From an uncultured Gemmatimonadaceae bacterium (GTDB lineage Bacteria > Gemmatimonadota > Gemmatimonadetes > Longimicrobiales > Gaopeijiaceae): a stretch of DNA of 64,000 bases. Positions 9,228 through 27,509 of the stretch are shown here, one piece after another. Numbering within the stretch: the stretch's first letter is position 1; the number at the start of each line of letters is the position of its first letter. Both the position numbers and the translations under genes were made by a program. The notes under the pieces were generated by a model. That model had not been told where the DNA came from. It was given only the letters and a program-made list of their open reading frames with translations, and ran no database searches. The DNA is taken from NCBI GenBank assembly GCA_964546115.1, contig CAZJIM010000002.1:1742-65741 (forward strand), written 5' to 3'.

Positions 9228-10487
9228 TTAGCCATACCCAACCGGCGCATCCATGACGACTCGTCGGTCCCGTAGTTCCTCGTATTCCGACCCGAGCGTC
9301 TCGCGCAGAATCGGACCCGTCAGGTCTGCCTCCACTGTGATGTGGTCCGGCAAGTACCGGCGGCACTCACCGAACTCAGCCTCGTATTCGGGCGTGGGAA
9401 AGGTCAGCGTCAAGATCGACGATCCGCCACGGCGCTCGACCCGATACAGAGGGTTGACCGTCAGCTCGCCGGTCACGTCGTGCTCATCCGTCAGCTCGTA
9501 GCGACGAAACAGATCGGCTCGAGCGCTAGCGACCAGCGTGAGCACCGGCTCGGTACCGAGTTCCTCGGGCGACACGTCGTGCGTCAGATCGACCGCACGG
9601 TGTTCGATCACGTCGTTGAAGATCCGCTCATCGCTGAATAGGCGCGGCTGGTGTGGCGCAAAGAGTGCGTGGTACGCGGCTGGCGTGAGAGTGTCGCCCG
9701 CTGAGAAGTTTTCGCCGAGGGCGCTGTGGAGGTGCGGCATCACCACGACGCCTTCCGAGCCCACAAGCCTCATCATCTCCTCGGCCAACAGTCGCTTGTG
9801 CCAGATATACGGAAACGCGTCAGCGAGGACCACGGTCGAGAACGTCCCTCGGGCAAACGGTAGCGGGTGGTTAGCGTCGCAGCAGACCGTCTCGGAGTCG
9901 GGCGCCGTGAACCGTCGGGCGAGCCACAGCTTCCAGAAGTACACGTCGGCGAGAACCGTGCCCGGGACCAAAGTCCCCCCGAGGGGGCGGAGACCGGTGA
10001 GGACCTGGGTCAGATGACCCGAGCCACCGCAAAGATCGAGAGTTCGGCCTCGGACGGGCCAGTCTTGCTGGCCGATCGCCCGTAACAGCGCTTCCGCGGT
10101 CAGAAACGTCGGGTCCGTGAAACGATAGAGAAAGTATGTGCCCTCGGCGTCGTGACACAGAAGCTCGAGGGCGTCGCGATATGTCGCGGTGTCCTGAGTC
10201 ATGAGGGTGCGAAAGCGTTTGCAGCGTACTGTATCGTCAGAAAAGCCAAGCAGCCCGAAGAGCGCCGCATCGCCCCGGTCCGCCTCGAGGGCGTGCAGGG
10301 CATGCCGCGTCGTCTCGTCGGTCTTCATCACGGGGATACCGGCGATGATGGGAAAAGCGCAGCACTCGCACCCGAGCACTCCCGCGTCGATGTGGCCTCC
10401 GTCGCGAACAAGCGCGTCGTTCTCGACGATCGAAACAGCGTTTCCACAAAAGGGACAGCGCAGGATATCCAGCAGGCTCGCATGCAT
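9228..10487 (-). CDS. Class I SAM-dependent methyltransferase with N-terminal Trm112-like zinc ribbon
   Basis: 419 aa. N-terminus LLDILRCPFCGN...LGCECCAFPIIAGIPVM (Trm112/UPF0434-type zinc ribbon). SAM motif I is LDLCGGSGHLT. Last gene of the minus-strand operon. Confidence 0.8.
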   Translation of the reverse strand: MHASLLDILRCPFCGNAVSIVENDALVRDGGHIDAGVLGCECCAFPIIAGIPVMKTDETTRHALHALEADRGDAALFGLLGFSDDTVRCKRFRTLMTQDTATYRDALELLCHDAEGTYFLYRFTDPTFLTAEALLRAIGQQDWPVRGRTLDLCGGSGHLTQVLTGLRPLGGTLVPGTVLADVYFWKLWLARRFTAPDSETVCCDANHPLPFARGTFSTVVLADAFPYIWHKRLLAEEMMRLVGSEGVVVMPHLHSALGENFSAGDTLTPAAYHALFAPHQPRLFSDERIFNDVIEHRAVDLTHDVSPEELGTEPVLTLVASARADLFRRYELTDEHDVTGELTVNPLYRVERRGGSSILTLTFPTPEYEAEFGECRRYLPDHITVEADLTGPILRETLGSEYEELRDRRVVMDAPVGYG

Positions 10488-10492
10488 GCAAA

Positions 10493-11308
10493 TCAGCTGT
10501 TAATCAGGGTCCCGAAGCGTTCGATGAAGACGTCGTCACGTGAGCCGACCTCAGCGCGTCGGTAGTGCTCGGTCCCGAGGAGAGCCGCCGAGTCTTGTGC
10601 ACTGACGTACTCCAGTGCACTCCCCTCGAACTGCGTACGGTGGCACCGTAACGCGGCCAGCTTCCGGTCCGCAAACTCCCCGGCCTCCATGACGAGTGTA
10701 GGTGCGGGCGCCATCGATCCGAACGCATCAGCATCGGCCACGCCGAGGATGAGCCTCGGGCGCGGGTCAGCCCGCTCGGGGTCGTTGGATGCGGCGTCCA
10801 CGATGGCTCGCATTCTGCCTGCGGGCATACTGACATAATGCAGGGCAGGGCCGGCGGCGCCTAACTGTGCGACCGCAGCGGTGGTTCGTTCGTGAACCGC
10901 GATGTGGTCCGGATGCCAGTAGAGGCCGTCCTCGTCGAATGTGACGACGACGTGTGGTTGGAACCGACTGATGGCGTCGAGGATGTCCGCCTCGAGCTGC
11001 GCATGGTCGATCCAGGGGAGCATCCCATCCTCGTGGTTGAGCAATAAGACGTCCCGAATACCAAGAATCCGCGCGGCGGCGTCCAGCTCACCCGCTCGAG
11101 TGTCGCGAAGCCGCCGGCCCTCGTGTCCGCCGGGCTTGCCGTCCTGCCCCGGGCCGTGCTCGCCGTGCGTGAGGCATAGGAGCGAGACCCGGACACCGGA
11201 TTGGGTGCACCGGGCGAGCAGACCCCCGCATGCCAGCGATTCGTCGTCGGGGTGTGCGAAGACCGCCAGGAGCGAAGCCCCGCTCAGATCGTCGAGTGGC
11301 AGTGACAT
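10493..11308 (-). CDS. PIG-L/LmbE-family N-acetylglucosaminyl deacetylase
   Basis: Start chosen at ATG 11308 (MSLPLDD...), 1 nt from the upstream stop. The signature is LLAVFAHPDDESLACGG plus HPDH. The longer ORF to 11596 overlaps the GT gene and is Ser/Trp-rich junk. Confidence 0.85.
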   Translation of the reverse strand: MSLPLDDLSGASLLAVFAHPDDESLACGGLLARCTQSGVRVSLLCLTHGEHGPGQDGKPGGHEGRRLRDTRAGELDAAARILGIRDVLLLNHEDGMLPWIDHAQLEADILDAISRFQPHVVVTFDEDGLYWHPDHIAVHERTTAAVAQLGAAGPALHYVSMPAGRMRAIVDAASNDPERADPRPRLILGVADADAFGSMAPAPTLVMEAGEFADRKLAALRCHRTQFEGSALEYVSAQDSAALLGTEHYRRAEVGSRDDVFIERFGTLINS

Positions 11309-11309
11309 A

Positions 11310-12380
11310 TCAGGGGGTGCGCTCGGCACGCTGACGCTCCGTGACCAGTCGCGAGTACACCTCCACGTGGGACGCGACCATACGGTCGGGCCCGAAGCGC
11401 TCCACGGCGCGATTTCGTACGATGCCCCGGTCGAGCGCCAGGACGAGTGGAAGCCCGTCGACCAGGGCGTCGAGTGAGTCGAAGATCCCGCCCGTGATGC
11501 CGCCGTCGACGAGCTCGTCGACGGCGCCGCATCGAAAGGCGGCAACGGGTGTGCCGCATGCCATGGCCTCCGCCATGACGAGACCAAACGGCTCACTCGC
11601 TTGCATGGGATAGAGCAGGGCTCGCGCCCCGCCGAGTAGCGTCACCTTCTGGGCGAGGTCTACCTCGCCGGCGTAGACGACTCGCTGGCCGTCGACCATC
11701 GGTGCGATGACGTTGGCATAGTAGTCATTCTCCGCCGCCGCGAGTACGAGACGCACACCGGCCCGTCGGGCTATCTCGATCGCCTGCACTACCCCCTTGC
11801 CTTCGGTAAAGCGCCCAAGAAAAACGAGGTAGTCTTCGGGTTCAGGGTGGAGAATGAACGTGGCGGTATCCACTGCGTGATGAATCGTCCCGACGACGTT
11901 GAGTCCGGCGAGAAGCTGCTTTTGCGCGGCCGAGATGGCTACGAAGGGCGCCTCCGGATAGCGCGACCAGAGCGCGACTTCGGGCGGCGTCGGCGCGTGG
12001 TGCAGGGTGAGCAATACCGGCGTGCGAGAAATCCGGGTGAACGCTAGCGACATCGGAGCGTACTCCGCCTGATAGTGAATGACGTCGAATTCGGCGGCCC
12101 GCTCGACGGCAGCGGCGAGGTTGAACAGCTCGCAGAGCTCCCACGGCCACAGCGAAGTGTCCTCGTGATAACCCAGTGGAAAGCTTGCGTGGAGCCTGGC
12201 CGTCGTGGTCGATGATCCGGTCGCGAAGAGGGTGGCCTCGTGGCCCATGGCCACCAGGCCGTCGGTGAGCAATGCGGTGACCGTTTCTACCGATCCAGAC
12301 CGGGGCGGCGGTATCGCCTGACCGACCGGGCCGACCACCGCGATACGCATCGGTTCAACTGACCGCGGTGTCATCCGCAC
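11310..12380 (-). CDS. GT-B fold glycosyltransferase, family 4
   Basis: 356 aa. N-terminus MRIAVVGPV...PPPRSGSVE...GHEATLF. C-terminal E-x7-E region (EPFGLVMAEAMACGTPV). An alternative start is ATG 12350. Confidence 0.85.
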   Translation of the reverse strand: MRMTPRSVEPMRIAVVGPVGQAIPPPRSGSVETVTALLTDGLVAMGHEATLFATGSSTTTARLHASFPLGYHEDTSLWPWELCELFNLAAAVERAAEFDVIHYQAEYAPMSLAFTRISRTPVLLTLHHAPTPPEVALWSRYPEAPFVAISAAQKQLLAGLNVVGTIHHAVDTATFILHPEPEDYLVFLGRFTEGKGVVQAIEIARRAGVRLVLAAAENDYYANVIAPMVDGQRVVYAGEVDLAQKVTLLGGARALLYPMQASEPFGLVMAEAMACGTPVAAFRCGAVDELVDGGITGGIFDSLDALVDGLPLVLALDRGIVRNRAVERFGPDRMVASHVEVYSRLVTERQRAERTP

Positions 12381-13492
12381 GCCTTTTCCAGAAACGGCGG
12401 CAGGACACGAGCACCGTCAAAACACTCCCGCGCGATCTCGGTTGCGCGGTTCGCATGGAGGGCGTATTCGCTTTCCACGCGTTTGAGGCCATCGAGCGCC
12501 TCGTCGACGGTCGAGAAACCGATGAGACCGGTGCCCGAAGGGAGGTGGGCGCTCCACCCGGTGTCCTGCACGAGCGCCGGTCGCCCAGCCGCCAGGTAGC
12601 ACGCGGTCCGGTCGCTGAACCAACCCGAATGCCTAGCCACGTAGGCGTGCTTGGCGACACCGAACTCCGCCTTCGATGCACGGATGAAGTCGCGGTAATC
12701 CCAAAGCGATCTAGAAACGCTCATCGCGTCGACCGGTGACCAGCCGTGTTCCCTGAGCAGTTCCATCGGACCGTTCACCGCGATCTCGAATCGCGAGGGC
12801 GTACGGGACGGTAGCTCGATGAACCGGATGAACTCCCGATCCTTGTTGCCGTCGACGTCCGTGAAGCTTTCGTTCTTCCAGGTCATCACGGTGGTGAAGC
12901 TCTCACCGGCCGGCAGTTCGTCGGTGTGCCAGAGCTCAGTGACGACGGGCTGCCAAGTCGGGTGCCACACGAGGCCGCTCGTCGGCACGTCGCAGGCTGG
13001 CGTACCAATGTTCGCCCCGAAGGTGAACAGATGGTCGAACCCCCGAAAGAACTCCACGTACCACTCTTCACCTTTTGCGATCGCGAGCTGCGTGAACACC
13101 GGGTCCGAGTCGACGAACACTCGGCGCGGGATGGCCGCGTACTCGTCACGCCAAGACCAGGAGCCTCCGGAGAGGTTCACGAAGAGGTCGGCCTCCGCGC
13201 AGTAGGTGCAAACGGCGTCCTTCGAAAGACCGTGATACGATCCGTCGTAGTTGACGAAGCTCCAACGGTCGCCGAGACCGAACGGCTCTAGCGCCTCATG
13301 GATGTAGCGCGTGCCGTATCCGGGGTCGGTCGCGATCTCGTCGCGCTCCGGGTCGTAGTTACACTCGCCGGTGTCCTCGATGTAGAGGACCTCGTGCCCG
13401 AGCCCCCGGAGGCCGAGCAGATACATTAGTGAACACCAAGTGACGCCACCGAAGGGATAGCGAGCGACGATACCGGCCAGCACGATCTTCAC
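12371..13492 (-). CDS. GT-B-like (CgeB/DUF3880-like) putative glycosyltransferase
   Basis: 373 aa. Rossmann-like N-terminus MKIVLAGIVARYPFGGVTW...GHEVLYIED. The C-terminus (YLAAGRPALVQDTGWS...GLIGFSTVDEAL) resembles the donor-binding half of GT1/GT4 enzymes. Assignment is by resemblance only. Confidence 0.55.
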   Translation of the reverse strand: MKIVLAGIVARYPFGGVTWCSLMYLLGLRGLGHEVLYIEDTGECNYDPERDEIATDPGYGTRYIHEALEPFGLGDRWSFVNYDGSYHGLSKDAVCTYCAEADLFVNLSGGSWSWRDEYAAIPRRVFVDSDPVFTQLAIAKGEEWYVEFFRGFDHLFTFGANIGTPACDVPTSGLVWHPTWQPVVTELWHTDELPAGESFTTVMTWKNESFTDVDGNKDREFIRFIELPSRTPSRFEIAVNGPMELLREHGWSPVDAMSVSRSLWDYRDFIRASKAEFGVAKHAYVARHSGWFSDRTACYLAAGRPALVQDTGWSAHLPSGTGLIGFSTVDEALDGLKRVESEYALHANRATEIARECFDGARVLPPFLEKACG

Positions 13493-13505
13493 GAGGTGGC
13501 CCGCT

Positions 13506-15329
13506 TCATGACGTAGCCCGCAGAAGCTCGTCCACCGTGCGCGGTTCGTCGAGCGATTTACCGACGGACAGGCGCTCGCACATCCGCCGATAGAGCCCGC
13601 ACGTCTTGATCAACTCGTCATGGGGTCCCTGGGCAACCAATCGCCCATCGTTCAGCACGAGGATGCGCGAGGCGTCGCGGACCGTGGATAGACGGTGGGC
13701 GATGACGAGCATGGTGTGGCTGGCGCGAAGCCGCCGTAGGGTATCGAAGATCGCCCCTTCAGAGATCGCGTCGACCGCTGAGGTGGGTTCGTCGAGAATC
13801 AAGATCGGAGCCACCTTCAGGAGCGCACGGGCGATACCGATTCGTTGGCGCTCGCCGCCTGAGAGCGTCGCGCCCCCCTCATGGACAGGGGTCTCATAGC
13901 CCTGAGGCAGACGGGTCACGAAATTGTGAAGGTTGGCGCCTCTCGCCGCCGCTTCGACGTCGGCGTCTGAGGCGTCGAGCCGCCCGTAGCGGATATTTTC
14001 GGCGATCGTGCCGGTAAACAGTATCGGCTGCTGCGGGACCAACGCGATCTGCTCACGAAGCGATTTCAAGGAGTAGCGGACCACGTTGATGTCGTCGATG
14101 AATACGCGGCCGGAGGCGGGCTCGAAGAATCTTGGGACCAAGCTGGCGATCGTGGTCTTACCGGCGCCGGTAAGACCGACCAGCGCGACCATCTCTCCAG
14201 GTCGGGCCTCGAAGCTGATGGTGTCGAGTACGTCCCGTTCGTCACCGTACTTGAAGCTCACCTCATCGAAGCGGATGTGTCCCTCGGTGCCCGATGCGTC
14301 GATCCCATCGGGATCGTCGAGGATCTCAGGGGTGAGGGAGAAGATCTCGCGGACACGGCGAGCACTCGTGACGGCTTGCTGCAGCGATCCGGTTGAGTGT
14401 GCAATCGCCGAGATCGGGTCATAGACCGCCGCCAGATAGGCGACGACCACGAGCAGGCTCCCGAGCGTCAGCGTGCCGTTCAGTACGTGGAGTCCGCCCA
14501 CGATCAGGACCAGAGCCGTGCCGGAAATCGTAATCGTCGTCACTGCGACGGAGAAGAGCGATTCCTGCCACGTCAGCGTGAGCCGGGCACGCATGGTGTC
14601 GTCCCCAGAGCTCGAGAAGCGCGCCAGCTCGTGGCGCTCCCGCGTAAAGCTCTTCACGGCCGCAACCGAGGACAGAATCTCGAAGGCGCGCTCGATCAAC
14701 GTCGACTCCAGCGCCTTCACCCGCTCGGCGCGATCGAGCATAGTGCGCGAGTAGAAGCGGAGGCACACATAGAGAAACGGCGCCACCACCAGCGAAAGCA
14801 GGGCGAGCGTCGGGTCCACGTAGACCAGGACCACGAACATGACCCCCAGATTGAGCGTAGCGAGAGTCAACGGAAACACACCACCGATAATCAAGTCGTC
14901 CACACAGTGCGCGTCGGCATCGAGCCGATAGACCGAATCGGCTGTCGGGGTCAGGACGTGGTGGCCCAGCGGAAGCGCCTGGAGGTGCTCCAGGAGCTTG
15001 GCCCGGAGCGTGTAGACGACGCTCTGGGCCACCTTCACCTGCATCTGGGTGTGGACCATACGGACCACCTCGTTGGCGATCTGGACTAGGAGACCGGCCA
15101 GGACGACGACAATGAGGAACGCCAGAGCACTGCCAATGATTGCCGCGGGAGTGATGGCTACAAGCGACGCCGGAAGCGGAAGACCGCCCAGCACATAGTC
15201 CACGATCACTTTGAGCGGCCAGGGGGCCAGCACCGCCAGGCCGATCTCTAGGATCGACAGCGCAAGGATCGCGGCGGCCTTTCCTCGATAGGGTTGGAGG
15301 AATCCGAGCGTCCAGGCAATCACGGTCAC
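13506..15329 (-). CDS. ABC exporter, fused permease/ATPase (MsbA/type I exporter-like)
   Basis: 607 aa. Six N-terminal TM helices. Walker A GLTGAGKTT, signature LSGGERQRIGIARAL and Walker B ILILDE. Confidence 0.9.
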   Translation of the reverse strand: MTVIAWTLGFLQPYRGKAAAILALSILEIGLAVLAPWPLKVIVDYVLGGLPLPASLVAITPAAIIGSALAFLIVVVLAGLLVQIANEVVRMVHTQMQVKVAQSVVYTLRAKLLEHLQALPLGHHVLTPTADSVYRLDADAHCVDDLIIGGVFPLTLATLNLGVMFVVLVYVDPTLALLSLVVAPFLYVCLRFYSRTMLDRAERVKALESTLIERAFEILSSVAAVKSFTRERHELARFSSSGDDTMRARLTLTWQESLFSVAVTTITISGTALVLIVGGLHVLNGTLTLGSLLVVVAYLAAVYDPISAIAHSTGSLQQAVTSARRVREIFSLTPEILDDPDGIDASGTEGHIRFDEVSFKYGDERDVLDTISFEARPGEMVALVGLTGAGKTTIASLVPRFFEPASGRVFIDDINVVRYSLKSLREQIALVPQQPILFTGTIAENIRYGRLDASDADVEAAARGANLHNFVTRLPQGYETPVHEGGATLSGGERQRIGIARALLKVAPILILDEPTSAVDAISEGAIFDTLRRLRASHTMLVIAHRLSTVRDASRILVLNDGRLVAQGPHDELIKTCGLYRRMCERLSVGKSLDEPRTVDELLRATS

Positions 15330-15339
15330 GGGAACACCT

Positions 15340-18114
15340 TCAACCTATGAAATCGGACACCGTCGTCTCGGCGGATCGCCGGGGCGTGGGTTCGACCCTG
15401 GGTTCTACGGCGAATTCGACCATGGTTTCAGCCGTAGATTCAGTCGTCGGCTCGACCATGGGTTCGACCGTGGTCGAGACCGGCAATTTTAGCAGCCCGG
15501 CAGCCGTGCTGACCCGAGCGACCGCCCGGTCGAGCACGGCCGTGGCGCGCATCACTTGCCAAGCGGCGCGGACGCCGATCGCCGCTATGGAAACCGCCGC
15601 GACCAAGACGGTCACCGACAGATCGTAGATGAAAATAGACGCGCTCATGCCGCCGGCTATTAATACCGCCAACGTCACACCCTGAAGGGTACCGACGAAG
15701 CTGGGACGCAGCCGTGCTCGCATCCGGAAGAGACAAGCTCCGTGTTCGTGCTCCTCAACGAGCGTCCGCACGTGCAACCAACCCCAGCGGCCGATCGCCA
15801 AGCTGAAATCCCGGTCGGGACGCCATCCCGCGTCGACGTCGACGATCTGAGTGGGCCGCGAGGCGCGCAGGACCCCGACGAGTTCAGTCAACAGGGTCGT
15901 GTGCGATGCCCACGACTCGCCCCAGAACGAGCGCTCCGTACCGGTGCGGGTCACGAGGCGCGCGGACGCGACGACGTCGCGCAAGGTCGGCATCGGCGAC
16001 TTCCAAGGATGCCGTGTCACGTGCTTCAGTGCCACCGCCGGGGGCCGCGACAGACCGCGGAAGCGCCCTCTGAATCGGGCCAGCGGCTGGAGCACGTGGA
16101 GCCACGCGATGAGGCCTCGATACAAAAAGCTACTCTGTCGCATGGACCAGCGTCCGATAGCGGGCAGACCGTCGAGGTTGGCACGCCAACCGCATCGGGC
16201 ACACTGCGCAAAGGTGACGGTCCCGCCGAGGATCCCGGCGATCAGAGGAAGCCACGCGGCGTCCATGCCTGCCAGCGGCCCAAAGACCCCGATGAGGAGC
16301 AAAACGAACGAGGCGGCCATCCACCCCGGCGAGTGGGGCAGGTAGTGCCACCGATGCGATTGCGTGCTGTAGATCGACGGGAATGCCGCTGTACCCCAAA
16401 CCCCGGTGTTCACTCGCCGCTCGGCCACCGGGCCCTGGAAGGGAAGCGGGCCATAGATACGCCCACGCCACACCATTTGCCCGCCGAGAAACTTCTCGGG
16501 ATGATGCGCGTCGAGCCAAGCCTCCCCCTCGCCATATCCGACCTGCTGACGCCAATACGCTCGCACGCTTGCTCGGCGATGGTGCCAGACCAGCGCCGAC
16601 GGTGCGAAGCCGATGTCCAGATTTTTGGCCTGCAGTCGCCAGCAGATGTCGACGTCGTCGCCGGCACGGACATAGACCGGATTGAAGCCATCGGCGGCCA
16701 AGAGCACGTCCCTTCTGAACGCCATGTTGCAGCCCGGTACGTGCTCAGCGATCCGGTCGTCGAGCATGACGTGGATTGGTTCTCCGGGGGCACGCGCTAC
16801 ACACTGTGACACCCATGGGTCGTCTGCCGGCACGACGTTCGGACCTCCGACGCCGGCGACGTCGGAGGTGAGCAACGGCTGCACCAAGTAGGTCAGCCAA
16901 TCGGGGTCGACACGGACATCGGCGTCGGTATACGCGATGATCGCGCCGGTCGCGGCGGCGAGTCCGACGTTCCGCGCCGCACTCAGGCCGCCGTTCGGCA
17001 CCTCAATGACACGAACGCCGGAATACCCTCGAGCGAGGTCCCCCGTCGCATCGCGCGACCCATCGTCGACGACGATGACCTCCACGTCGGGGTAGGTCAG
17101 TTCATCGAGCGACGTCAGGCAGTCGGCAAGGGTGTCCGCGGCGTTATACGCGCAGACCACCACTGAGACTTTCGGCCACGTAGCGCGCTCGCTGGACGGG
17201 AACGGAGCGCTGGCGAAGACCTCTTGCACTGCAGAGAGCGCCGGTTTGCGGTGTCGCGCCTCATCGACCAGGCCAAAGTTCCAGTCGTCGACCGTCTGGC
17301 CGCCGCGCCACCACTCGTCGGTCCAGGCGTACGCCACCGCACCACAGGCACCTTCGGCAAAAGCAGTCCGGAGATGTGTGGCCGTGATGCACGCTTGCCC
17401 CTTTAGTCCCTCTCGCAAGCTGTCCCCGCCGGCTTCCGCAAGGAGCAGCGGTCGGATACCCGCGAGATGCTGCAAGCGTGCGAGATAGCCTCGGAGCTCG
17501 GTCTCGCGGTGGAGATAGACGTTGTAGGCGAAGACGTCGAACGCATCGAGTTCGAGGTGCTCAGTCGGCGGGAAATTTACATACGTCAACAGGCTAGCGG
17601 GTGCCACGGCCTTCACGTCTTGGTAGAACTCGCGCAGGAACCGCTCGATCCTTCTGTGGCCGTGCCAACGGACGATCCCCGCGGGGATTTCGTTTCCGAG
17701 AGCAAAGAGGAGCGCCGCGGGGTGCTCCGCAAGCCGTCGCACAGTCGTGACGGCGTCAGATTTAATGCGTCGAGTGAGCCTTCTGTCGTCGAGGAATGGG
17801 ATGTGTTGCGGCCACGCCAGTCCGACCATCACGCTGAGACCGTGCCGAAGGGCTTCGTCGAGCAGGGCCAAAGACGGCGGTGTGTAGGTGCGCACCGTGT
17901 TGATGCCGGCGGCCGCCATCAGTGTAAAATCCTGTGCGATGCGCTCCTTCGACGGGAATTGTGCTCCCTCGCTGTCTGGAGCGAAGGTGCCGTAGGCAAC
18001 TCCTTTGATCCAAATACGACGCCCATCGACTTCTAGGAATTTGCCATCCATGCGGACACGGCCAGCGGGCCCGATTAGGGTGCGAGAGCCGCTCACACGG
18101 GTGGTGTCGTCCAC
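15340..18114 (-). CDS. Tri-partite fusion of a clan GH-A glycosidase-like domain, a GT2 glycosyltransferase and a polytopic membrane domain
   Basis: 924 aa. The N-terminal ~300 aa is a (beta/alpha)8-like domain (IWIKGVAYG, ALGNEIP, LLAEAGGDS). The GT2 core is VSVVVCAYNAADTL...VIVVDDGSRD...TDADVRVDPDW...WRQQVGYGEG. The C-terminal third is hydrophobic and ends in a VEP-rich low-complexity tail. Confidence 0.8.
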   Translation of the reverse strand: MDDTTRVSGSRTLIGPAGRVRMDGKFLEVDGRRIWIKGVAYGTFAPDSEGAQFPSKERIAQDFTLMAAAGINTVRTYTPPSLALLDEALRHGLSVMVGLAWPQHIPFLDDRRLTRRIKSDAVTTVRRLAEHPAALLFALGNEIPAGIVRWHGHRRIERFLREFYQDVKAVAPASLLTYVNFPPTEHLELDAFDVFAYNVYLHRETELRGYLARLQHLAGIRPLLLAEAGGDSLREGLKGQACITATHLRTAFAEGACGAVAYAWTDEWWRGGQTVDDWNFGLVDEARHRKPALSAVQEVFASAPFPSSERATWPKVSVVVCAYNAADTLADCLTSLDELTYPDVEVIVVDDGSRDATGDLARGYSGVRVIEVPNGGLSAARNVGLAAATGAIIAYTDADVRVDPDWLTYLVQPLLTSDVAGVGGPNVVPADDPWVSQCVARAPGEPIHVMLDDRIAEHVPGCNMAFRRDVLLAADGFNPVYVRAGDDVDICWRLQAKNLDIGFAPSALVWHHRRASVRAYWRQQVGYGEGEAWLDAHHPEKFLGGQMVWRGRIYGPLPFQGPVAERRVNTGVWGTAAFPSIYSTQSHRWHYLPHSPGWMAASFVLLLIGVFGPLAGMDAAWLPLIAGILGGTVTFAQCARCGWRANLDGLPAIGRWSMRQSSFLYRGLIAWLHVLQPLARFRGRFRGLSRPPAVALKHVTRHPWKSPMPTLRDVVASARLVTRTGTERSFWGESWASHTTLLTELVGVLRASRPTQIVDVDAGWRPDRDFSLAIGRWGWLHVRTLVEEHEHGACLFRMRARLRPSFVGTLQGVTLAVLIAGGMSASIFIYDLSVTVLVAAVSIAAIGVRAAWQVMRATAVLDRAVARVSTAAGLLKLPVSTTVEPMVEPTTESTAETMVEFAVEPRVEPTPRRSAETTVSDFIG

Positions 18115-18165
18115 CGGGATGGCCGGCCGGCTAATCCGCCGAAACGGGCTGCGAAATCATGTCCA

Positions 18166-19332
18166 TCATAACCAGTGACCCGAGCGTTTCGCCTTGGTCT
18201 GGACGTAGCGCAGATTGTGGCGGTTGATTCCACCGTAGAGGGGCATGCGTTCCGTGACTTCGATGCCGCTCTCCTCCACCGCCATCACCTTGTTGGGGTT
18301 GTTGGTGAGGAGTTCGACCCGCTTGATGTCGAGGTGGTTCAGGATCGCCACCCCCGCATCGTAACGCCGCTCGTCCGCACCGAAGCCGAGCACGCCGTCA
18401 GCGTCGACCGTGTCCAGCCCATCGGCTTGGAGGTTGTAAGCGCGAATCTTGTTACCCAGTCCGATCCCACGGCCCTCTTGGGCTAGATATACCAACACGC
18501 CTCCGCCCCGGTTCTTGAAGTGCTCTAGGCTCCCGCGGAGCTGCTCCCCACAGTCACAGCGCAAGCTGCCGAAGAGGTCTCCCGTGAGGCACGCCGAGTG
18601 GAGGCGTACCGGCACCGGATCGGGCCATCCTGCGCGAGGTCCGACCAGTACCGCCACGTGCTCCAGGAGGCCCCCGCCTTCTCGGAAGAATACGAAACGG
18701 GAGTGCTCGGCGCCCGCCAAGGGAACCGGCGCCTCGGCCACGGTGGTGATCTCGATTCCGGACCCGGCCGCCGCGTGCTCTGCGTCCTCGTTCGAGACGT
18801 CGAGAACCGTCCCGTCCTCGATCCAGCGCACTAGTAGCGGCGAACCGCGATCCACCTCCACGCTCACCACAGCGGGAAGGAGACGGGCGAATCGCGTGAG
18901 CGCCAACCCTGCCGATTCAGTGGCGCTGGCCGGACGCGTGTTGAAGCGGAGAGAAGAGCCGGACTGGGCGGGTCTTCGTGCCGTCGCCAGTCCCAGAATC
19001 GTCTCCGGAGTTTCGCCGACGTCGAGTCCGATGCTGAGGTTCGCCTCACCCTCGTGTTCGGCGATCCTCATCGCTCGACCGCGATGGCGGGTCACGACCA
19101 GACGAAGGGGTGCACCGAGGGAGCGGAGCCGTTCCAGCCCGTCCACGCCCAGACATTCGACCGCAGCGACCAGGGCGCACGCACCTCGAGCCCCATTGGT
19201 CACGCAGAGAACTCGTCCCTGCCTGAGCTCGAAGAGTCCTCGTTCCGCTTTGTGCGCCATTCGGTCAGGTAGTATCGTTGGGGCCGCGTGTGCCCCGATC
19301 CGGGCGTCGTGGGCTGGCTGGCCGCTCTGCAA
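18166..19332 (-). CDS. GTP cyclohydrolase II paralog with a degenerate DHBP-synthase(RibB)-like N-terminal domain
   Basis: The C-terminal ~190 aa is HSACLTGDLFGSLRCDCGEQL...EGRGIGLGNKIRAYNLQ...LLTNNPNKV, the canonical RibA core with its zinc Cys triad. The N-terminal ~190 aa aligns to RibB (ELRQGRVLCV...ALVAAVE...LRLVVTRHR) but lacks the acidic catalytic motif. An alternative start is ATG 19260. Confidence 0.85.
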   Translation of the reverse strand: MQSGQPAHDARIGAHAAPTILPDRMAHKAERGLFELRQGRVLCVTNGARGACALVAAVECLGVDGLERLRSLGAPLRLVVTRHRGRAMRIAEHEGEANLSIGLDVGETPETILGLATARRPAQSGSSLRFNTRPASATESAGLALTRFARLLPAVVSVEVDRGSPLLVRWIEDGTVLDVSNEDAEHAAAGSGIEITTVAEAPVPLAGAEHSRFVFFREGGGLLEHVAVLVGPRAGWPDPVPVRLHSACLTGDLFGSLRCDCGEQLRGSLEHFKNRGGGVLVYLAQEGRGIGLGNKIRAYNLQADGLDTVDADGVLGFGADERRYDAGVAILNHLDIKRVELLTNNPNKVMAVEESGIEVTERMPLYGGINRHNLRYVQTKAKRSGHWL

Positions 19333-19394
19333 TTCGTCCCGGAAACCGGTTCCGGGGCGATCGGGCGAAAGATGCGCCTGTAGGACTCCGGCTG

Positions 19395-21047
19395 ATGAGG
19401 GTACTCATTAAGATGATCAGGCTCGTGTCCGGGTGGGTGCTTGTCAATGGGCTGCTCTTGACGCCATCGTGGCTCTCGGGCGTGGTGGCGGACGCACCGA
19501 CGTCGGCCTGGCTTTCCCTGGAGGCGGCCCTGATCGTGGGTGCGATGGCGCTCCTGCCACGGCGGCCTTGGAGCCGCGGGCTGGCCTGGGTCTTGGCCAC
19601 GGGAGTCATTCTGTTCGTCGCCATCGCGCTGACGGATGTCGTCTTCCGGGTGAGCCTGAGCCGCTCGCTCAACCTCTCCTTGGACCTCTATCTGCTGAGC
19701 GCCATCTACCGGCTGGCGGTGGGGAATTTGGGGTTCTTGTCGACACTTTTTGGGTTCGGGGCAATCACCGTTTCCCTCGCCCTGTCGGCGTTCGCGATGG
19801 CATGGCTTCTGACGCCGACCGCCTCGGACGGCGGGAAGTCCCTCTCCCGGCCCGTACCGCGGGCCGCAGGGGGAATCATAGTGGGCTCGCTCGCGCTCGG
19901 CCTCATTGGTCTGGCCGCGCCCGCCGTTGGACACCTGATGGCCGCACCCGCCGTTTGGCTCGCCCTCGAGCAGGCGGAGCAATTTGGGGCGACTCGCGAG
20001 GAACAGAAGGCGTTCGCGGCCGAGCTGGAGACGCGCTCGGATGGATTCGCGGACTTGCCGGGACTGTTCTCGAGGCTGGAGGGGCGCAACGTCGTCTTGA
20101 CGTACATCGAGTCCTACGGGATGGCGGCGCTCGAGGACCCTGAGTTCGCGGTGACCATTCGGCCGCGCCTCGACACGATCGCAACACGAATCGAGAGTGC
20201 GGGCCTCCACTTCGCGACCGGCGAGTTTACCTCCCCTACCGTGGGCGGGCAGTCGTGGTACGCGCACGGGACCATGCTCAGCGGACTCTGGCTCGAAAAT
20301 CAGCTTCGCTACGACCTCCTGCTCGCGAGCGAGCGGAAGACGCTGGTCGACGACTTCCGTCGCGCCGGCTACCGCACCGCAACCGTGATGCCCGCCATCA
20401 CGACGAGCTGGCCGGAGGGGCTCCGACTCGGCTACGACGACGTGTATTCGAGGCCTTCCATTCCCTACGCCGGCCCGCCCTTCTACTGGGTCACCGTCCC
20501 GGATCAGTTCACGTGGTCGTTCCTCGGGGACCTCATCAAGGAGGCGACAACCCCGCTCTTTTTGGAAGCGGCGATGGTGAGCAGCCATGCGCCCTGGACC
20601 CCCGTCCTGCCCCTCGTCGATTGGGACTCCGTGGGGGACGGAGCGATTTTCGGACCCTACCGAGAGGATGGGTATCCGCCCGAGAAACTCTGGTGGGATG
20701 TCCAGGCCCTGCGCCAGGGTTACGCTCGCACTCTCGACTACTCGCTGCTGGCGATGGCCGAGTTTGCCGAGTGGTTCCTGAATGAGCGGACGCTCCTGGT
20801 CGTGGTTGGGGACCACCAGGCGGCTCCCTGGGTGACGGGGGCGAGCGACGCGGATGTTCCGGTGCACGTGATCGCCCACGACCCCGCCCTTCTCAAGCCC
20901 TTCTTCGAGTGGGGGTTCCTCCCCGGCGCCTTCCCCAACCCGGAGGGCACGCCTCCGCGAATGGACGAGTTCCGCGAGTGGTTCCTGCGGGCCTTTAGCG
21001 GCGGCACCGTCGACTCCACCACTCTTTTGACGAAGGAGGGAAGGTGA
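19395..21047 (+). CDS. Membrane-anchored sulfatase/LtaS-like (alkaline-phosphatase superfamily) transferase
   Basis: Start chosen at ATG 19395 (MRVLIKMIRLVSGW...). There are about 5 N-terminal TM helices, followed by a catalytic domain with NVVLTYIESYG, FTSPTVGGQSW and VVVGDHQAAPW. The overlapping 653-aa minus ORF is an Arg/Pro-rich shadow. Confidence 0.7.
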   Translation: MRVLIKMIRLVSGWVLVNGLLLTPSWLSGVVADAPTSAWLSLEAALIVGAMALLPRRPWSRGLAWVLATGVILFVAIALTDVVFRVSLSRSLNLSLDLYLLSAIYRLAVGNLGFLSTLFGFGAITVSLALSAFAMAWLLTPTASDGGKSLSRPVPRAAGGIIVGSLALGLIGLAAPAVGHLMAAPAVWLALEQAEQFGATREEQKAFAAELETRSDGFADLPGLFSRLEGRNVVLTYIESYGMAALEDPEFAVTIRPRLDTIATRIESAGLHFATGEFTSPTVGGQSWYAHGTMLSGLWLENQLRYDLLLASERKTLVDDFRRAGYRTATVMPAITTSWPEGLRLGYDDVYSRPSIPYAGPPFYWVTVPDQFTWSFLGDLIKEATTPLFLEAAMVSSHAPWTPVLPLVDWDSVGDGAIFGPYREDGYPPEKLWWDVQALRQGYARTLDYSLLAMAEFAEWFLNERTLLVVVGDHQAAPWVTGASDADVPVHVIAHDPALLKPFFEWGFLPGAFPNPEGTPPRMDEFREWFLRAFSGGTVDSTTLLTKEGR

Positions 21048-21682
21048 CAAAGGGCTTCGGCACCGGCGCCCGGCTCTTCCATTGGTTGGTCGTGCTACTC
21101 TTGCTGGTACAGATCCCCGCGGGAATCGCGATGATCGCACCCGCCCTCGAGCAGGAGTCAATCGACCGGCTCTTTGTCTTGCACAAAGGGCTCGGCGTCG
21201 TACTCCTCGTGGTCGTGGCGGCCCGCGTACTGTGGCGGCTGACCCACCCGGCGCCGCCGATGTCGGAGACCTTCCCCGAGTTGGAGCGACGCATGGCGAC
21301 CATGGCGCACTGGGTCATCTACGTGGTCCTGATCGTGGTTGCGGGGAGCGGATACGTGCACGTGGTCGGGGATGGCTTCCCCATCGAGATGATGGACGCG
21401 CTCAGGCTACCGACGCTGTTACCTCTGATGCCCGGGGTCGCCTCGTGGGCGTCCCTCGTGCACCGATTCTCGACGTTCTTGCTGATCATCCTGGTGTCAT
21501 TTCACGTGGCAGAGGTCCTGCGGCACCATCTAGTGCTGCGCGACGAGACGCTGGGCCGGATGTGGCCGCCGCTTGGCGGGCCAGAGCCCCCTCCCGACTC
21601 CGAAACGAAGCCGGAGAGCGGGACCAAGACCGAGGGAGTGGCTAACCCCGAAGGAGGGGCCGGCGGTGTGGGGCCGAGTTGA
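21044..21682 (+). CDS. Cytochrome b561 family protein
   Basis: 212 aa with 4 TM segments. Has the conserved His pattern (ARLFHWLVVLL, LHKGLG, MAHWVIY, HRFSTF). The GTG start overlaps the upstream TGA (GTGA). Confidence 0.75.
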   Translation: MTKGFGTGARLFHWLVVLLLLVQIPAGIAMIAPALEQESIDRLFVLHKGLGVVLLVVVAARVLWRLTHPAPPMSETFPELERRMATMAHWVIYVVLIVVAGSGYVHVVGDGFPIEMMDALRLPTLLPLMPGVASWASLVHRFSTFLLIILVSFHVAEVLRHHLVLRDETLGRMWPPLGGPEPPPDSETKPESGTKTEGVANPEGGAGGVGPS

Positions 21683-22430
21683 GTGCTGGCTCGGCCTGGT
21701 TCGCTCGCTGATCATCTACTGGCGGCCGGGCCGGCAGCGCGGGCTGCGGGAGCTGTACCGCCCGTTCGTCGGGGCGGGAGACCTGGTTTTCGACGTGGGG
21801 GCGCACCTGGGAGACCGCACCGCCGCGTTCCGAAAATTGGGCGCGCGGGTGGTGGCCTTGGAGCCCCAGCCAGCCGTGTGCCGCTGGCTCGTGCAGATCG
21901 TCGGGCGCAGCCGTGACGTTTCAGTTCGGCCGGAGGCGGTGGGGCGCGCGGTCGGTACCGCCCGCCTGGCCCTGAGCCACCGCACGCCGACCATGTCCTC
22001 CCTGGCCGAGGACTGGCGAAGCACCCTGCCCGCACAGAACCCCGGCTTCCGCCGCGTGCGCTGGGACGACTCGTTGGAGGTGCCGGTGACGACCCTGGAC
22101 GCGCTGATCGAGGACCATGGCCTCCCGCGCTTCTGTAAAATCGACGTGGAAGGGTACGAAGCCGAGGTGCTGGCGGGCCTGAGTCACCGCATCCCCGCGC
22201 TCTCCGTGGAATTCTTGGGAGGGGCTCTGGACGTCGCCGAGGCGTGCGTGCGGAGGCTCGAGGTGCTAAGTGGGTACGAGTTCAACGCGATCGAGGGAGA
22301 GGAGAGGAGATTCATGTCGAAGCAGTGGCTTACGGCTAATGAGATGGTCGCCTGGCTGAGGCGTGACGGGGGGAGTGTTTCTTCGGGAGACGTCTACGCC
22401 CGGCTGACCGAGTGCTCGAACCATGGCTGA
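21666..22430 (+). CDS. FkbM-family SAM-dependent methyltransferase
   Basis: FDVGAHLGDRTAAF...VVALEPQP...FCKIDVEGYEAEVL are typical FkbM motifs. Start placed at GTG 21666, a 17-nt overlap with the b561 gene. The track ORF from 21573 would overlap by 110 nt. Confidence 0.7.
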   Translation: MWGRVECWLGLVRSLIIYWRPGRQRGLRELYRPFVGAGDLVFDVGAHLGDRTAAFRKLGARVVALEPQPAVCRWLVQIVGRSRDVSVRPEAVGRAVGTARLALSHRTPTMSSLAEDWRSTLPAQNPGFRRVRWDDSLEVPVTTLDALIEDHGLPRFCKIDVEGYEAEVLAGLSHRIPALSVEFLGGALDVAEACVRRLEVLSGYEFNAIEGEERRFMSKQWLTANEMVAWLRRDGGSVSSGDVYARLTECSNHG

Positions 22431-23238
22431 CGGGGCGATCCGTTGGTGGCAAACCCTGACGACGGTGGAGGCGGATGCGATCGAGGCAAGCGATCCGGTG
22501 GTCGTTCTGCCCCTCGCCGCAGTCGAACCGCACGGATCTCACCTGCCCCTCTCCACCGGCCTCGAGATCGGGCTCGGCCTGCTCTCGGAAGCGTTCGGGC
22601 GGCTGCCGGATGGCTTTCCGGCCTGGGCTCTGCCGCCCCAAGCGATCGGCTGCAGCCGAGAACACTCGCGCTTTGCGGGAACGCTTTCTCTGGAGCCGGA
22701 GCAGCTCTCCTCCCTGATCGAGGCGGCGGGCGAGGCTCTCGCACGAATCGGCGTGCGGCGCCTCGTGCTGAGCAACAGCCACGGCGGGAACCGGCACGCG
22801 CTGGAGATCGCCGGTCTACGGCTTCGCGACGAGTTGGGTATGCTGGTCGTGCACGCGAGCTGGTTCCGTTTTCCCCAGCTGAAAGACGTGGACCTCCCGG
22901 ATGGGGAGTGGCGCCACGGCATCCATGGCGGGGCGGTGGAGACGGCCATGATGATGCATCTCCGGCCGGATCTGGTGAGCGCGCCCGAAGCGGCCCAGAC
23001 CCGCTCCTTCGGTGAGGAATTTGAGAAAACGCTACGGTTGGTGGCTCCGGAGGGTTCGACCTCGTTCTCCTGGCTGGCCGGCGATCTAAATGTCGATGGA
23101 GTGGTCGGGGACGCGACCTTGGCCAACGCCGATCTTGGGGCACGGTTGGTGTCGCACTACGGAGCGTTCCTGGCCGACGTAATCGAGGACGCGCGGGCGT
23201 TCCCTCTGGACCGGCTGGAGACCCACGCCCGTGAGTAG
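22423..23238 (+). CDS. Creatininase-family amidohydrolase
   Basis: 271 aa. Family motifs are VVVLPLAAVEPHGSHLPLSTG, SNSHGGN and HGGAVETAMMMHL. The start overlaps the FkbM stop by 8 nt. Confidence 0.85.
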   Translation: MADGAIRWWQTLTTVEADAIEASDPVVVLPLAAVEPHGSHLPLSTGLEIGLGLLSEAFGRLPDGFPAWALPPQAIGCSREHSRFAGTLSLEPEQLSSLIEAAGEALARIGVRRLVLSNSHGGNRHALEIAGLRLRDELGMLVVHASWFRFPQLKDVDLPDGEWRHGIHGGAVETAMMMHLRPDLVSAPEAAQTRSFGEEFEKTLRLVAPEGSTSFSWLAGDLNVDGVVGDATLANADLGARLVSHYGAFLADVIEDARAFPLDRLETHARE

Positions 23239-23261
23239 CTCCGCGAAGGCGGTGGGTCGGA

Positions 23262-24152
23262 TTGTCTGAGATCGCAGCCGCGCTGGACGAGGTTGCGGCC
23301 TGGACACTGGTACGCGCCGCCGTGGCGCGTGATCTCCCCGAGCCCGGGCCTCGTCGTGTAGTGCATGGCACGCGCTCGGAGCTCTGGCTTGAGCTGAGCG
23401 AGTCCGGGCGCTGGGAGACGTCGGCTCCGCCCACGCCGGCGGCTCGAGATCTGCTCGACCTCTATCTGCCGCTCACCCGTGGACCCGACTTGGTCATCGG
23501 GCAGCTCGGCCAGAGCCTGGACGGCCGCATCGCAACGGTGAGCGGGAAGTCCCACTACATCACCGGACCAGAGGACATCCGCCGCCTCCACCGACTTCGC
23601 GCTCTGGTCGACGCCGTGATCGTGGGGGTCGTCACCGTGGCGCTGGACGATCCGGAGCTCACGGTGCGGAAGGTGAAGGGCGAAAATCCGGTCCGGGTGG
23701 TGCTCGATCCGGACGGCCGCCTCGGGCAGGACCGTCGGATCTTCTCGGACGGATTGGCCCCGACGATCGTGGTGCGAGGCACCGGGGTGGATGATCTCCA
23801 AGCCACAGGGGATGGCCCCGATGATGCCAAAGCCACAGGGGATGGCCTCCCGGAAGTCCTCACCCTTCCCGCCTCCGGCGCCGAGGGCTTCGAGCCGAAG
23901 GGTGTTCTGGAAGCGCTCCGTGCCCGCGGGCTGCGACGGGTGCTGGTGGAGGGGGGAGGGGTCACGGTGTCGAGGTTCCTCAAGGCCGGCATCCTCGACC
24001 GACTCCACCTGACCGTCGCACCTATGTTGATGGGCTCGGGCCGTCCGGGGATCACCCTGCCGCCGATCGAGACCCTGGACCAGTCGCTCCGGGCTCGGTG
24101 CCGTCACGTACCCCTAGGAGACGACCTCCTCTTCGATCTCGACCTGAGCTGA
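23262..24152 (+). CDS. RibD C-terminal-domain (DHFR-like) reductase, no deaminase domain
   Basis: 296 aa. Has GQLGQSLDGRIAT...ITGPEDIRRLHRLRALVDAVIVGVVTV..DDP.LTVR...RVLVEGGGVTVSRFL...LHLTVAPMLMGSG. It contains an in-frame 30-bp tandem duplication. Confidence 0.85.
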   Translation: MSEIAAALDEVAAWTLVRAAVARDLPEPGPRRVVHGTRSELWLELSESGRWETSAPPTPAARDLLDLYLPLTRGPDLVIGQLGQSLDGRIATVSGKSHYITGPEDIRRLHRLRALVDAVIVGVVTVALDDPELTVRKVKGENPVRVVLDPDGRLGQDRRIFSDGLAPTIVVRGTGVDDLQATGDGPDDAKATGDGLPEVLTLPASGAEGFEPKGVLEALRARGLRRVLVEGGGVTVSRFLKAGILDRLHLTVAPMLMGSGRPGITLPPIETLDQSLRARCRHVPLGDDLLFDLDLS

Positions 24153-24185
24153 GCAGGACGACGCCCGGAACGGAGGAACCGGGGA

Positions 24186-26106: not shown

Positions 26107-26477
26107 GCCACATGCGACTCGTGAAGCGTCATGTTTAGTCGCTGGATGCCTCGAGCCTCGTCCCCGAGGCGGCCATCATGAATTGCCTCCACGAGCCGGT
26201 CGAAGATCGTGCGCGCCAGGAACTCCGTTGTCGTGTTCTGCCCCGTGAACGCGGCCTCCTCGTCCAGGTTTCGGAAATCAAGCTCCCCGAGGATCTCTTT
26301 AAGCGTCGCGCTGGCGAGTCCGATGTCGACGACCAGGCCGTCGGCGTCGAGTTCCGGGCGGCGAAAGGTGGCGTCCACGATGTAGGTGGCACCGTGGAGA
26401 TTCTGCGCTGGACCAAAGGTCTCACCGCTGAAGCTGTGGGCGATCATGAAATGGTCGCGGACGTTCAGGCTATACAA
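26079..26477 (-). CDS. PTPS/QueD-like T-fold protein lacking canonical zinc and catalytic residues
   Basis: 132 aa. T-fold pattern FMIAHSF...[13 protein letters not shown]...DFRNLDEE...[12 protein letters not shown] replaces HGH, there is no catalytic Cys, and LDFRNL replaces LDHxxL. Confidence 0.85.
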
Positions 26478-26485
26478 GGCCCCTC

Positions 26486-27475: not shown

Positions 27476-27509
27476 GTCCCTTCAGCTCTCTGGATGCGGG
27501 TCGGTCCCC

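Follow-up and report, generated by a model that had tools for sequence, protein, structure and literature searches.

We analysed a window of 64,000 nt (the whole stretch of DNA considered here, from contig CAZJIM010000002.1 of an uncultured Gemmatimonadaceae bacterium) in which a six-gene cassette for the synthesis and export of a glycan lies beside a group of genes that includes a GTP cyclohydrolase II (GCH II) paralogue and a PTPS-IV-type protein, here called the GTP cluster. In a comparison set of about 1,800 genomes, the gene contents and positions indicate that these two modules are linked both statistically and physically, but not obligatorily, and we consider it very likely that they are functionally coupled. 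A functional link had been proposed in an earlier reading of the same DNA, made from its letters alone (the sequence-only reading); it is upheld by the co-occurrence of the two modules, by their adjacency in varied gene orders, by OpgG/OpgH as an alternative partner together with a gene fusion, and by the transfer of a 19-kb block holding both. The region 18166-28256 is the orphan PTPS-IV/GCH II cluster, and the GCH II gene belongs by descent to this cluster and not to the cassette.

For Vicinamibacterales we used PTPS-IV and the cassette as markers in a sample of 201 genomes. PTPS-IV was present in 51 and the cassette in 40; 32 genomes had both, 8 the cassette only, 19 PTPS-IV only and 142 neither, corresponding to an odds ratio of 29.9 (Fisher p = 1e-16, uncorrected for phylogeny). 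Among the 32 double-positive genomes the markers were 13-40 kb apart on one contig, in varied orders, in 13 cases, 0.2-1.6 Mb apart in 4, and on separate contigs in 15. A distance of 13-40 kb is the spacing of directly neighbouring clusters, and the cassette-PTPS-IV distance in the window is 13 kb. On the complete chromosome of G043 the cassette is followed immediately downstream by the whole GTP cluster, in convergent orientation. A group of 21 acidobacterial cassette genomes, scored as lacking the GTP cluster when the full-length GCH II was the query, was discarded as a counter-example after a PTPS-IV search had overturned the result: the cluster is present in them, with a short GCH II, and unlinked.

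For Gemmatimonadota the sample consisted of 401 genomes, and the queries were the cassette orthologue, the N-extended GCH II and MdoG (OpgG). The cassette was found in 6/401 genomes, and the N-extended GCH II, present in 19/401 overall, in 6/6 of these. GCH II and the cassette are co-directional in the window, in G004, on contig C5 of G011 (G011:C5), in G429 and at the loci L018-L021; the cassette is embedded between GTP genes at L022, and GCH II is convergent to it at L081 (G011:C15) and in G398. Adjacency is retained across at least four gene orders and two phyla. Since gene orders vary among genomes, a GCH II gene that heads the operon is one of several arrangements. The sequence-only reading had placed it at the head of the operon, and as a conserved arrangement this has to be given up: the co-directional layout is limited to one Longimicrobiales sub-lineage, the lineage in which it would have arisen, and elsewhere GCH II and the cassette are convergent, or are separated by kilobases to megabases.

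The GTP cluster has a second kind of partner. Exactly 6 of the 19 GCH II-positive Gemmatimonadota have the cassette and the other 13 have MdoG/OpgG, with all 13 MdoG genes 1.8-4.3 kb from GCH II; in the 401 genomes neither MdoG nor the cassette occurs in any that is negative for the N-extended GCH II. In a set of 41 close relatives the GCH II paralogue accompanies MdoG in 10/10 MdoG genomes. The cassette-less G426 and G002 have their GTP cluster flanked by OpgG (MdoG) and an OpgH-like GT2, and OpgG/MdoG (PF04349) gave no match in the window's own genome (G000), in G004 or in G011. As for Vicinamibacterales, 7/8 MdoG genes of the PTPS-IV-only genomes are 7-10 kb from PTPS-IV, and MdoG is absent from three cassette genomes. 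Between OpgG and GCH II, G426 carries an orthologue, 44% identical, of the window's sulfatase-like protein; G002 has in the same position beside OpgG a 605-aa gene without Pfam match, assigned by position and size only. At one locus (L014:7209-10406, in G019) the two functions share one frame of 1065 aa, in which Pfam recognises an OpgH-like GT2 and an N-extended GCH II. GCH II also lies in open frames of ~1000 aa in six further genomes (G454, G384, G352, G326, G403 and G015), which suggest the same OpgH-GCH II fusion, with Pfam confirmation for G019 only. We also observed an rve-family integrase (L099:4142-5230) just past the OpgH-like gene that adjoins the GTP cluster in G426.

The two modules have also been displaced as a unit. 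The block from the Trm112-ribbon methyltransferase gene to the CDP-alcohol phosphatidyltransferase gene (9228-28256, 19 kb) has a G+C content of 62-71%, against 57-60% in its flanks. It is repeated on G011:C5, in a different genus, with 90-97% protein identity and unrelated flanks, and an IS30-like transposase (HTH_38 + rve) adjoins it there; this looks like a recent horizontal transfer, or a mis-binned contig. Since the whole block recurs on G011:C5 in unrelated flanks, the two modules move together. A second, older copy in G011 is the one on C15 with convergent GCH II (55-68% identity). The integrase next to the OpgH-like gene of G426 is a further hint that the slot of the glucan partner is a recombination-prone site. 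As to the window's own assembly, it has 1.82 Mb in 66 contigs at an estimated completeness of 91%, and same-genus genomes have 2.7-4.7 Mb; the estimated completeness, or else the binning, may be wrong.

In the window, Pfam and NCBIfam domain calls gave 7 co-directional genes on the minus strand in 9228-19260, in the 5'->3' order GCH II, fusion of a GH157-like domain, a GT2 domain and transmembrane (TM) segments (GH_GT2), MsbA-like ABC exporter, GT-B protein, GT4 glycosyltransferase, PIG-L deacetylase and Trm112-ribbon methyltransferase, so that strand and domains agree with the sequence-only reading. It had described the cassette junctions as overlaps or gaps of at most 10 nt, which is correct for GH_GT2/ABC (10-nt gap), GT-B/GT4 (10-nt overlap), GT4/PIG-L (1 nt) and PIG-L/methyltransferase (5 nt) and incorrect for ABC/GT-B, where the coordinates leave 13 nt. 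GCH II does lie directly upstream in the same orientation, its stop being 51 nt from the GTG start codon of GH_GT2 as annotated, and most of this gap consists of GCH II tail codons. Precisely, since these conserved codons fill 36-39 nt, the genuinely non-coding part of the spacer is 16 nt and not 51. The tail is out of frame by a 2-nt insertion at 18164-18170 on the minus strand (TTA[TG]ATGGAC, vs TTAATGGAC in G004), which truncates GCH II to 364 aa and leaves 11 conserved codons as an overlapping mini-ORF (open reading frame) in another frame. At L018-L022, in G004 and on G011:C5 the tail is in frame and the protein has 375 aa; the insertion is either a real frameshift or an error in a metagenome-assembled genome (MAG).

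A consensus scan of the GCH II/GH_GT2 spacer found no terminator-like or sigma-70-like site, a weak test as host promoters may differ. The arrangement is far beyond chance; the identical gene order is seen again in dozens of genomes. We infer that one transcript very probably spans both GCH II and the cassette in the window's genome. On the other side of GCH II, the likeliest start of the divergent gene is ATG 19395, 134 nt from the GCH II ATG at 19260. The region in between, with its CCGGAACCGGTTTCCGG palindrome, is conserved in L018-L020, deleted in L021 and unconserved in L022, and is a candidate for a shared operator. GCH II itself carries an N-terminal extension of 170-190 aa and scores 316 bits, under the cut-off, against the long RibA of NCBIfam PRK08815. 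It is an extra paralogue, since a separate GCH II of the housekeeping RibBA type is encoded on another contig (G000:C8) of the same genome.

The cassette was followed through the homologues of GH_GT2, which number more than 8,000. A genome scan gave 589 loci, chiefly in MAGs of Vicinamibacterales and Longimicrobiales, and the best 80 were taken for the neighbourhood survey. In about 45 of these best 80 (Vicinamibacterales and Longimicrobiales) the six cassette genes stand in identical order, and other loci have the fusion alone or the fusion with ABC and GT-B paralogues; the methyltransferase is kept as the sixth gene in about 29 loci. The six genes form an autonomous, conserved cassette. In a large group with many Vicinamibacterales ('group B') the synthase has an extra C-terminal beta-propeller of NHL repeats and a length of ~1280-1300 aa (L037:9944-13774, L039:9905-13807), and the cassette lies directly behind the histidine operon hisGDCBHAF.

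Features of the window, with position, strand and the evidence for each assignment.
Feature	Position	Strand	Evidence
Trm112-like zinc ribbon + class I S-adenosylmethionine (SAM) methyltransferase	9228-10487	-	weak Pfam Trm112p, Methyltransf_11/25; NCBIfam Trm112_arch 2.7e-6
PIG-L/LmbE-family de-N-acetylase	10493-11308	-	Pfam PIG-L 3e-34
GT4 glycosyltransferase of the cassette (GT4a)	11310-12380	-	Pfam Glycos_transf_1, Glyco_transf_4
Predicted GT-B-fold glycosyltransferase, 373 aa	12371-13492	-	AlphaFold2 (AF2) + Foldseek
MsbA-type half-size ABC exporter	13506-15329	-	Pfam ABC_membrane + ABC_tran
GH_GT2: GH157/GH158-like clan GH-A barrel + GT2 + ~4 TM with inserted soluble domain, 924 aa	15340-18114	-	Pfam Glyco_hydro_2_C, GT2 families
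Conserved codons MDMISQPVSAD*, C-terminal tail of GCH II, out of frame here	18131-18169	-	alignment with relatives
GTP cyclohydrolase II paralogue	18166-19260	-	Pfam GTP_cyclohydro2 8e-53
Divergent intergenic region, GCH II/cassette vs plus-strand GTP operon	19261-19394	.	holds CCGGAACCGGTTTCCGG palindrome
Membrane protein, putative sulfatase/alkaline-phosphatase-superfamily domain	19395-21047	+	Pfam Sulfatase 1e-5, 25.4 bits vs cut-off 25
Cytochrome b561	21044-21682	+	Pfam Ni_hydr_CYTB 4e-27
FkbM-family methyltransferase	21573-22430	+	Pfam Methyltransf_21; NCBIfam fkbM_fam above cut-off
Creatininase-family amidohydrolase	22423-23238	+	Pfam Creatininase 2e-55; NCBIfam MftE and creatininase under cut-off
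RibD_C-type pyrimidine reductase	23262-24152	+	Pfam RibD_C 4e-40; NCBIfam archaeal DARPP reductase and ribD_Cterm under cut-off
Class I methyltransferase (MT2)	24186-25184	-	weak Pfam Methyltransf_25/23
GT4 glycosyltransferase of the GTP cluster (GT4b)	25009-26106	-	Pfam Glycos_transf_1, Glyco_trans_1_4
PTPS-IV-type T-fold protein	26079-26477	-	FGPAQ signature in translation; HGA replaces HGH
MDR/ADH-like oxidoreductase	26486-27475	-	weak Pfam ADH_zinc_N; NCBIfam BchC-like under cut-off
CDP-alcohol phosphatidyltransferase, right end of transferred block	27474-28256	+	Pfam CDP-OH_P_transf 1e-17; last shared gene in G011:C5

For the cassette proteins we considered NCBIfam equivalogs, and MftF, PgaC, MshA/B, BshA/B, MsbA and ChvA were all under their cut-offs. 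In GH_GT2 a Glyco_trans_2_3 GT2, which is no orthologue of the relatives' OpgH-like GT2, is joined to a GH domain. All of 35 sequences keep its clan GH-A catalytic residues N141-E142 and E227, and likewise the GT2 motifs DxD (397-399), GDD (485-487) and QQxGYG (523-528), the last a variant of QxxRW. Hydropathy gives about four TM helices, in segments ~596-640 and ~810-855; the fusion shows neither a signal nor a TM segment at its N-terminus, which presumably places the GH and GT2 domains in the cytoplasm. Its AF2 model has a pLDDT of 74 and the top Foldseek match is LaGH157 (E 2e-14), with GH158 also matched; the GH domain has a PDB sequence match to GH158 at 4.7e-7. The model thus assigns the GH domain, in all likelihood, to the clan GH-A retaining glycosidases, GH157, GH158 and GH2 not being told apart, and the predicted fold (GH157/GH158 beta-1,3-glucanases, catalytic Glu pair kept) would fit a glucan product. 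The top 50 Foldseek matches of GH_GT2, the membrane part of which is modelled with moderate confidence, held no channel-forming processive synthase of the BcsA, HAS or chitin-synthase type.

The ABC protein is under the cut-offs of NCBIfam MsbA, of the NdvA/ChvA glucan exporter and of HepA, and MsbA lipid flippases score best; its E-values against the glucan-exporter models are 1e-100 and 2e-76, and it fails the ChvA/NdvA cut-offs of TIGR01192 and NF010178 (257.9 bits vs 585 and 336 bits vs 733). The 373-aa GT-B protein is the best conserved cassette gene product, with 65-90% identity across two phyla, and Pfam, NCBIfam and PDB sequence searches gave no match to it. Its AF2 model (pLDDT 94, pTM 0.93) had 227 PDB matches in Foldseek at E <= 1e-3, with a TM-score of about 0.6 and with Tll1591, T4 AGT, a tetrahydrobiopterin (BH4) glucosyltransferase, MshA, BshA and PimA as top structures, and the two Rossmann-like halves superpose on GT4-type enzymes. 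We consider it, from the model, as a predicted GT-B glycosyltransferase without sequence-family match.

The PIG-L protein, whose true ATG is 11308 and not 11596 (the start of the long ORF), shows the motifs AHPDDE and HPDH, and is under the cut-offs of NCBIfam BshB, MshB and Mca; GT4a has no NCBIfam equivalog at cut-off. A mycothiol or bacillithiol pathway was considered for GT4 and PIG-L and rejected on scores against cut-offs (MshB 90 vs 224, BshB2 92 vs 195, MshA 27 vs 462, BshA 28 vs 274). The methyltransferase, last gene of the cassette, has a four-Cys ribbon visible in its sequence, and a PDB sequence search with it gave nothing useful.

As to the GTP cluster, the signature FGPAQ of PTPS-IV is the one defined in PMC5445326. 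The PTPS-IV orthologues of the cassette genomes are 60-86% identical; in the window the FGPAQ signature is present, the HGH zinc site is lost, and a GCH II (PF00925) stands 7 kb off in the same block. The sulfatase-like protein has 5-6 N-terminal hydrophobic/TM segments by hydropathy, the architecture of OpgB/LtaS/EptA; NCBIfam and PDB sequence searches gave no match, its orthologue in G043 reaches 2e-9 with Pfam Sulfatase, and a sulfatase-like gene adjoins the cassette in 9 acidobacterial loci. The creatininase-family protein belongs to the same family as the ArfB/BrbF formamidases and MftE; a bacterial formamidase of this family has been described (PMC9478397). Same-genus relatives have the GTP cluster without the cassette, and Thauera has the same gene set, including a 577-aa membrane protein without Pfam match. 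A gene for an LPG_synthase_TM protein (MprF-type, flippase-like) was observed in the GTP clusters of Thauera (L102:12479-13513) and G426 (L099:15724-16698); none was seen in the window's block, where the sole exporter is the MsbA-like ABC protein of the cassette.

We propose, at about even odds, that the two are separable partner modules, the cassette being responsible for synthesis and export of a glucan-type glycan and the GTP cluster for a lipid-borne head group. The cassette would be an autonomous cytoplasmic line for the synthesis and export of a glucan-type oligo- or polysaccharide: GH_GT2 would polymerise the chain and trim or transglycosylate it, the GT-B enzyme and GT4 would add further sugars, one of them probably N-acetylglucosamine (GlcNAc), PIG-L would de-N-acetylate this GlcNAc to glucosamine (GlcN), the Trm112-ribbon methyltransferase would methylate the product and the MsbA-type ABC transporter would export it. 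On the other side, GCH II, the creatininase-like hydrolase, the RibD_C reductase, PTPS-IV and the methyltransferases would turn GTP into a reduced aminopyrimidine or pterin-like alcohol, which the CDP-alcohol phosphatidyltransferase would load onto a phospholipid and the sulfatase-like membrane enzyme (OpgB/LtaS/EptA-type) would move, as head group, onto the exported glycan. We infer every chemical step and the acceptor, and for this specific mechanism of head-group transfer our confidence falls slightly short of even.

Alkaline-phosphatase-superfamily enzymes are known to transfer phospholipid head groups to glucans, and phosphoglycerol and phosphoethanolamine are put in this way on osmoregulated periplasmic glucans (OPGs) and on cellulose (PMC3818809; bioRxiv 10.64898/2026.09.23.753746). 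By analogy, the decoration model would account for the phosphatidyltransferase, for the sulfatase-like enzyme and its position at the interface of the two modules, and for the interchange of OpgGH with the cassette. In its widest form, which we hold only tentatively and rate as rather unlikely, at least two phyla would attach a GTP-derived, possibly redox-active pyrimidine- or pterin-like group to an exported envelope glucan, via a phospholipid head group, the glucan being either a classical OPG or the cassette product. Cytochrome b561 could link such a group to transmembrane electron transfer.

Several results weigh against this model and against the linkage itself. The statistics are uncorrected for shared ancestry, and the Gemmatimonadota partition concerns almost wholly one family. 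The cassette lacks PTPS-IV in 8/40 Vicinamibacterales genomes, some of them fragmented MAGs; the modules are 58 kb apart in G376 and on separate contigs in G186, and the GTP cluster is unlinked in group B, e.g. ~2 Mb off on the same contig in G049. In Thauera there are zero glucan genes within 10 kb of the GTP cluster. Behind the putative sulfatase-like assignment stand a borderline Pfam score and the architecture, and NCBIfam matches the GT2 domain best to MftF (2.7e-45, 155 bits vs a TIGR03965 cut-off of 280). The sequence-only reading had asked whether the two halves occur independently at unlinked loci in related genomes: they are linked there (odds ratio ~30; 6/6 Gemmatimonadota), and in part they are independent, with 8/40 cassettes without PTPS-IV and the GTP cluster alone in many genomes.

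The main rival, which we regard as unlikely, takes the GTP-derived small molecule itself as the substrate that the cassette glycosylates, with the ABC transporter exporting a glycosylated metabolite or cofactor. In this case the heterocycle or its ribityl chain would receive GlcN through GT4 and PIG-L, the GT-B enzyme and an MftF-like GT2 would lengthen an oligosaccharide and the methyltransferase would add a cap, giving something like the oligoglycosylated, methylated mycofactocin, pterin glycosides or vicine. The MftF match of the GT2 domain speaks for this, given that MftF builds a beta-1,4-glucan chain on its cofactor and MftM methylates that chain (PMC7491314, PMC9679996), but its score is far under the cut-off. 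Among the structures close to the GT-B protein, the BH4 glucosyltransferase, MshA and BshA use small acceptors; GCH II stands 16 nt upstream of the synthase, and plants have GCH II-derived pyrimidine glucosides (bioRxiv 10.1101/2020.02.26.966523). However, OpgG/OpgH, the other partner of the GTP cluster, makes a free periplasmic glucan and no small-molecule glycoside, the CDP-alcohol phosphatidyltransferase and the sulfatase-like enzyme are left without a role, and some genomes keep the cassette but have no PTPS-IV.

It is less likely still that there is no shared product, the cassette making an ordinary exopolysaccharide or envelope glycan and the co-occurrence reflecting common descent and co-transfer on a mobile envelope island. 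Each module does occur alone in many genomes, the block is GC-rich with an IS30-like transposase beside it on G011:C5, the Gemmatimonadota cases come nearly all from one family, and group B cassettes have a housekeeping context behind the his operon. Yet the association extends over two phyla and over differing gene orders, the GTP cluster is partnered by either the cassette or OpgGH to the exclusion of the other, and an OpgH-like synthase and GCH II share one frame, a fusion for which hitch-hiking gives no explanation.

Another possible product is a glycosylphosphatidylinositol (GPI)-like glycolipid, for which the CDP-alcohol phosphatidyltransferase would make a phosphatidyl-polyol, GT4 and PIG-L would give a GlcN-lipid in the manner of PIG-A and PIG-L, other transferases would extend it and the ABC protein would flip it. 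This is the least probable reading: the GT4 + PIG-L pair and CDP-OH_P_transf share one block, the ABC protein scores best against MsbA lipid flippases and both GT4s weakly match a GlcNAc-phosphatidylglycerol synthase model, but all these matches are far under cut-offs, GT4a and PIG-L are in the cassette and unlinked to the phosphatidyltransferase in most Vicinamibacterales, and the GH157-like domain and the OpgGH alternative are left without a role.

Abundant soil Acidobacteria and Gemmatimonadota have few uncharacterised glycan operons as strongly conserved as this cassette. With the two modules as evolutionary partners and OpgGH interchangeable with the cassette, two loci of unknown function are brought under one hypothesis, namely that periplasmic or exported glucans bear a substituent derived from GTP. 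If true, glucans would gain a new class of substituent, and the orphan PTPS-IV/GCH II cluster a function for the first time. The hypothesis is approachable in cultivable carriers of the GTP cluster that maybe also have OPGs, e.g. Thauera, and testing it would inform on the chemical diversification of envelope glucans.

Among known systems, we place the present one with the biosynthesis of decorated glucans, as a new variant that has a real chance of being new in kind. It would resemble the OPG system (OpgG/OpgH + OpgB/OpgE) in having, as proposed, a membrane GT2 glucan synthase and decoration with phospholipid head groups by an enzyme of the alkaline-phosphatase superfamily (PMC3818809), and OpgG with an OpgH-like GT2 takes the place of the cassette beside the GTP cluster in cassette-less relatives. 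It differs in that the window's genome has no OpgG, that the synthase is a GH157-like/GT2 fusion with ~4 TM segments, that ABC export and three extra tailoring enzymes are present, and that the proposed head group is GTP-derived instead of glycerol or ethanolamine.

With the cyclic beta-1,2-glucan system (Cgs/NdvB/ChvB) it would share chain synthesis in the cytoplasm by a large membrane synthase with a GT domain and a GH-type domain for trimming or cyclisation, and export of the product by an MsbA-like half-transporter (Cgt/NdvA/ChvA). Cgs uses GT84 and GH94-type domains, whereas the domains here are GT2 and GH157/158-like; the window's ABC protein is under the family cut-offs, and the product is a predicted glucan for which neither a cyclic form nor a beta-1,2 linkage is implied.

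The PTPS-IV/GCH II cluster has been known as an orphan since 2006-2008 and is widespread across phyla. That of S. coelicolor (SCO6650-SCO6655) has the same FGPAQ signature (PMC5445326) and the same creatininase-family, RibD_C, GT4 and CDP-OH_P_transf neighbours; the difference is that the cassette adjoins the cluster here, as OpgGH does in relatives, and in the literature searched no paper linked GCH II or PTPS-IV to glucans or this cluster to glucan synthases. Finally, mycofactocin glycosylation (MftF + MftM) likewise places an oligo-glucose chain and a methylation on a redox-active small molecule (PMC7491314, PMC9679996), and a creatininase-family protein occurs in both systems. In the window's block, however, no MftA/B/C-type genes were seen, and the synthase has a GH domain and a dedicated exporter.

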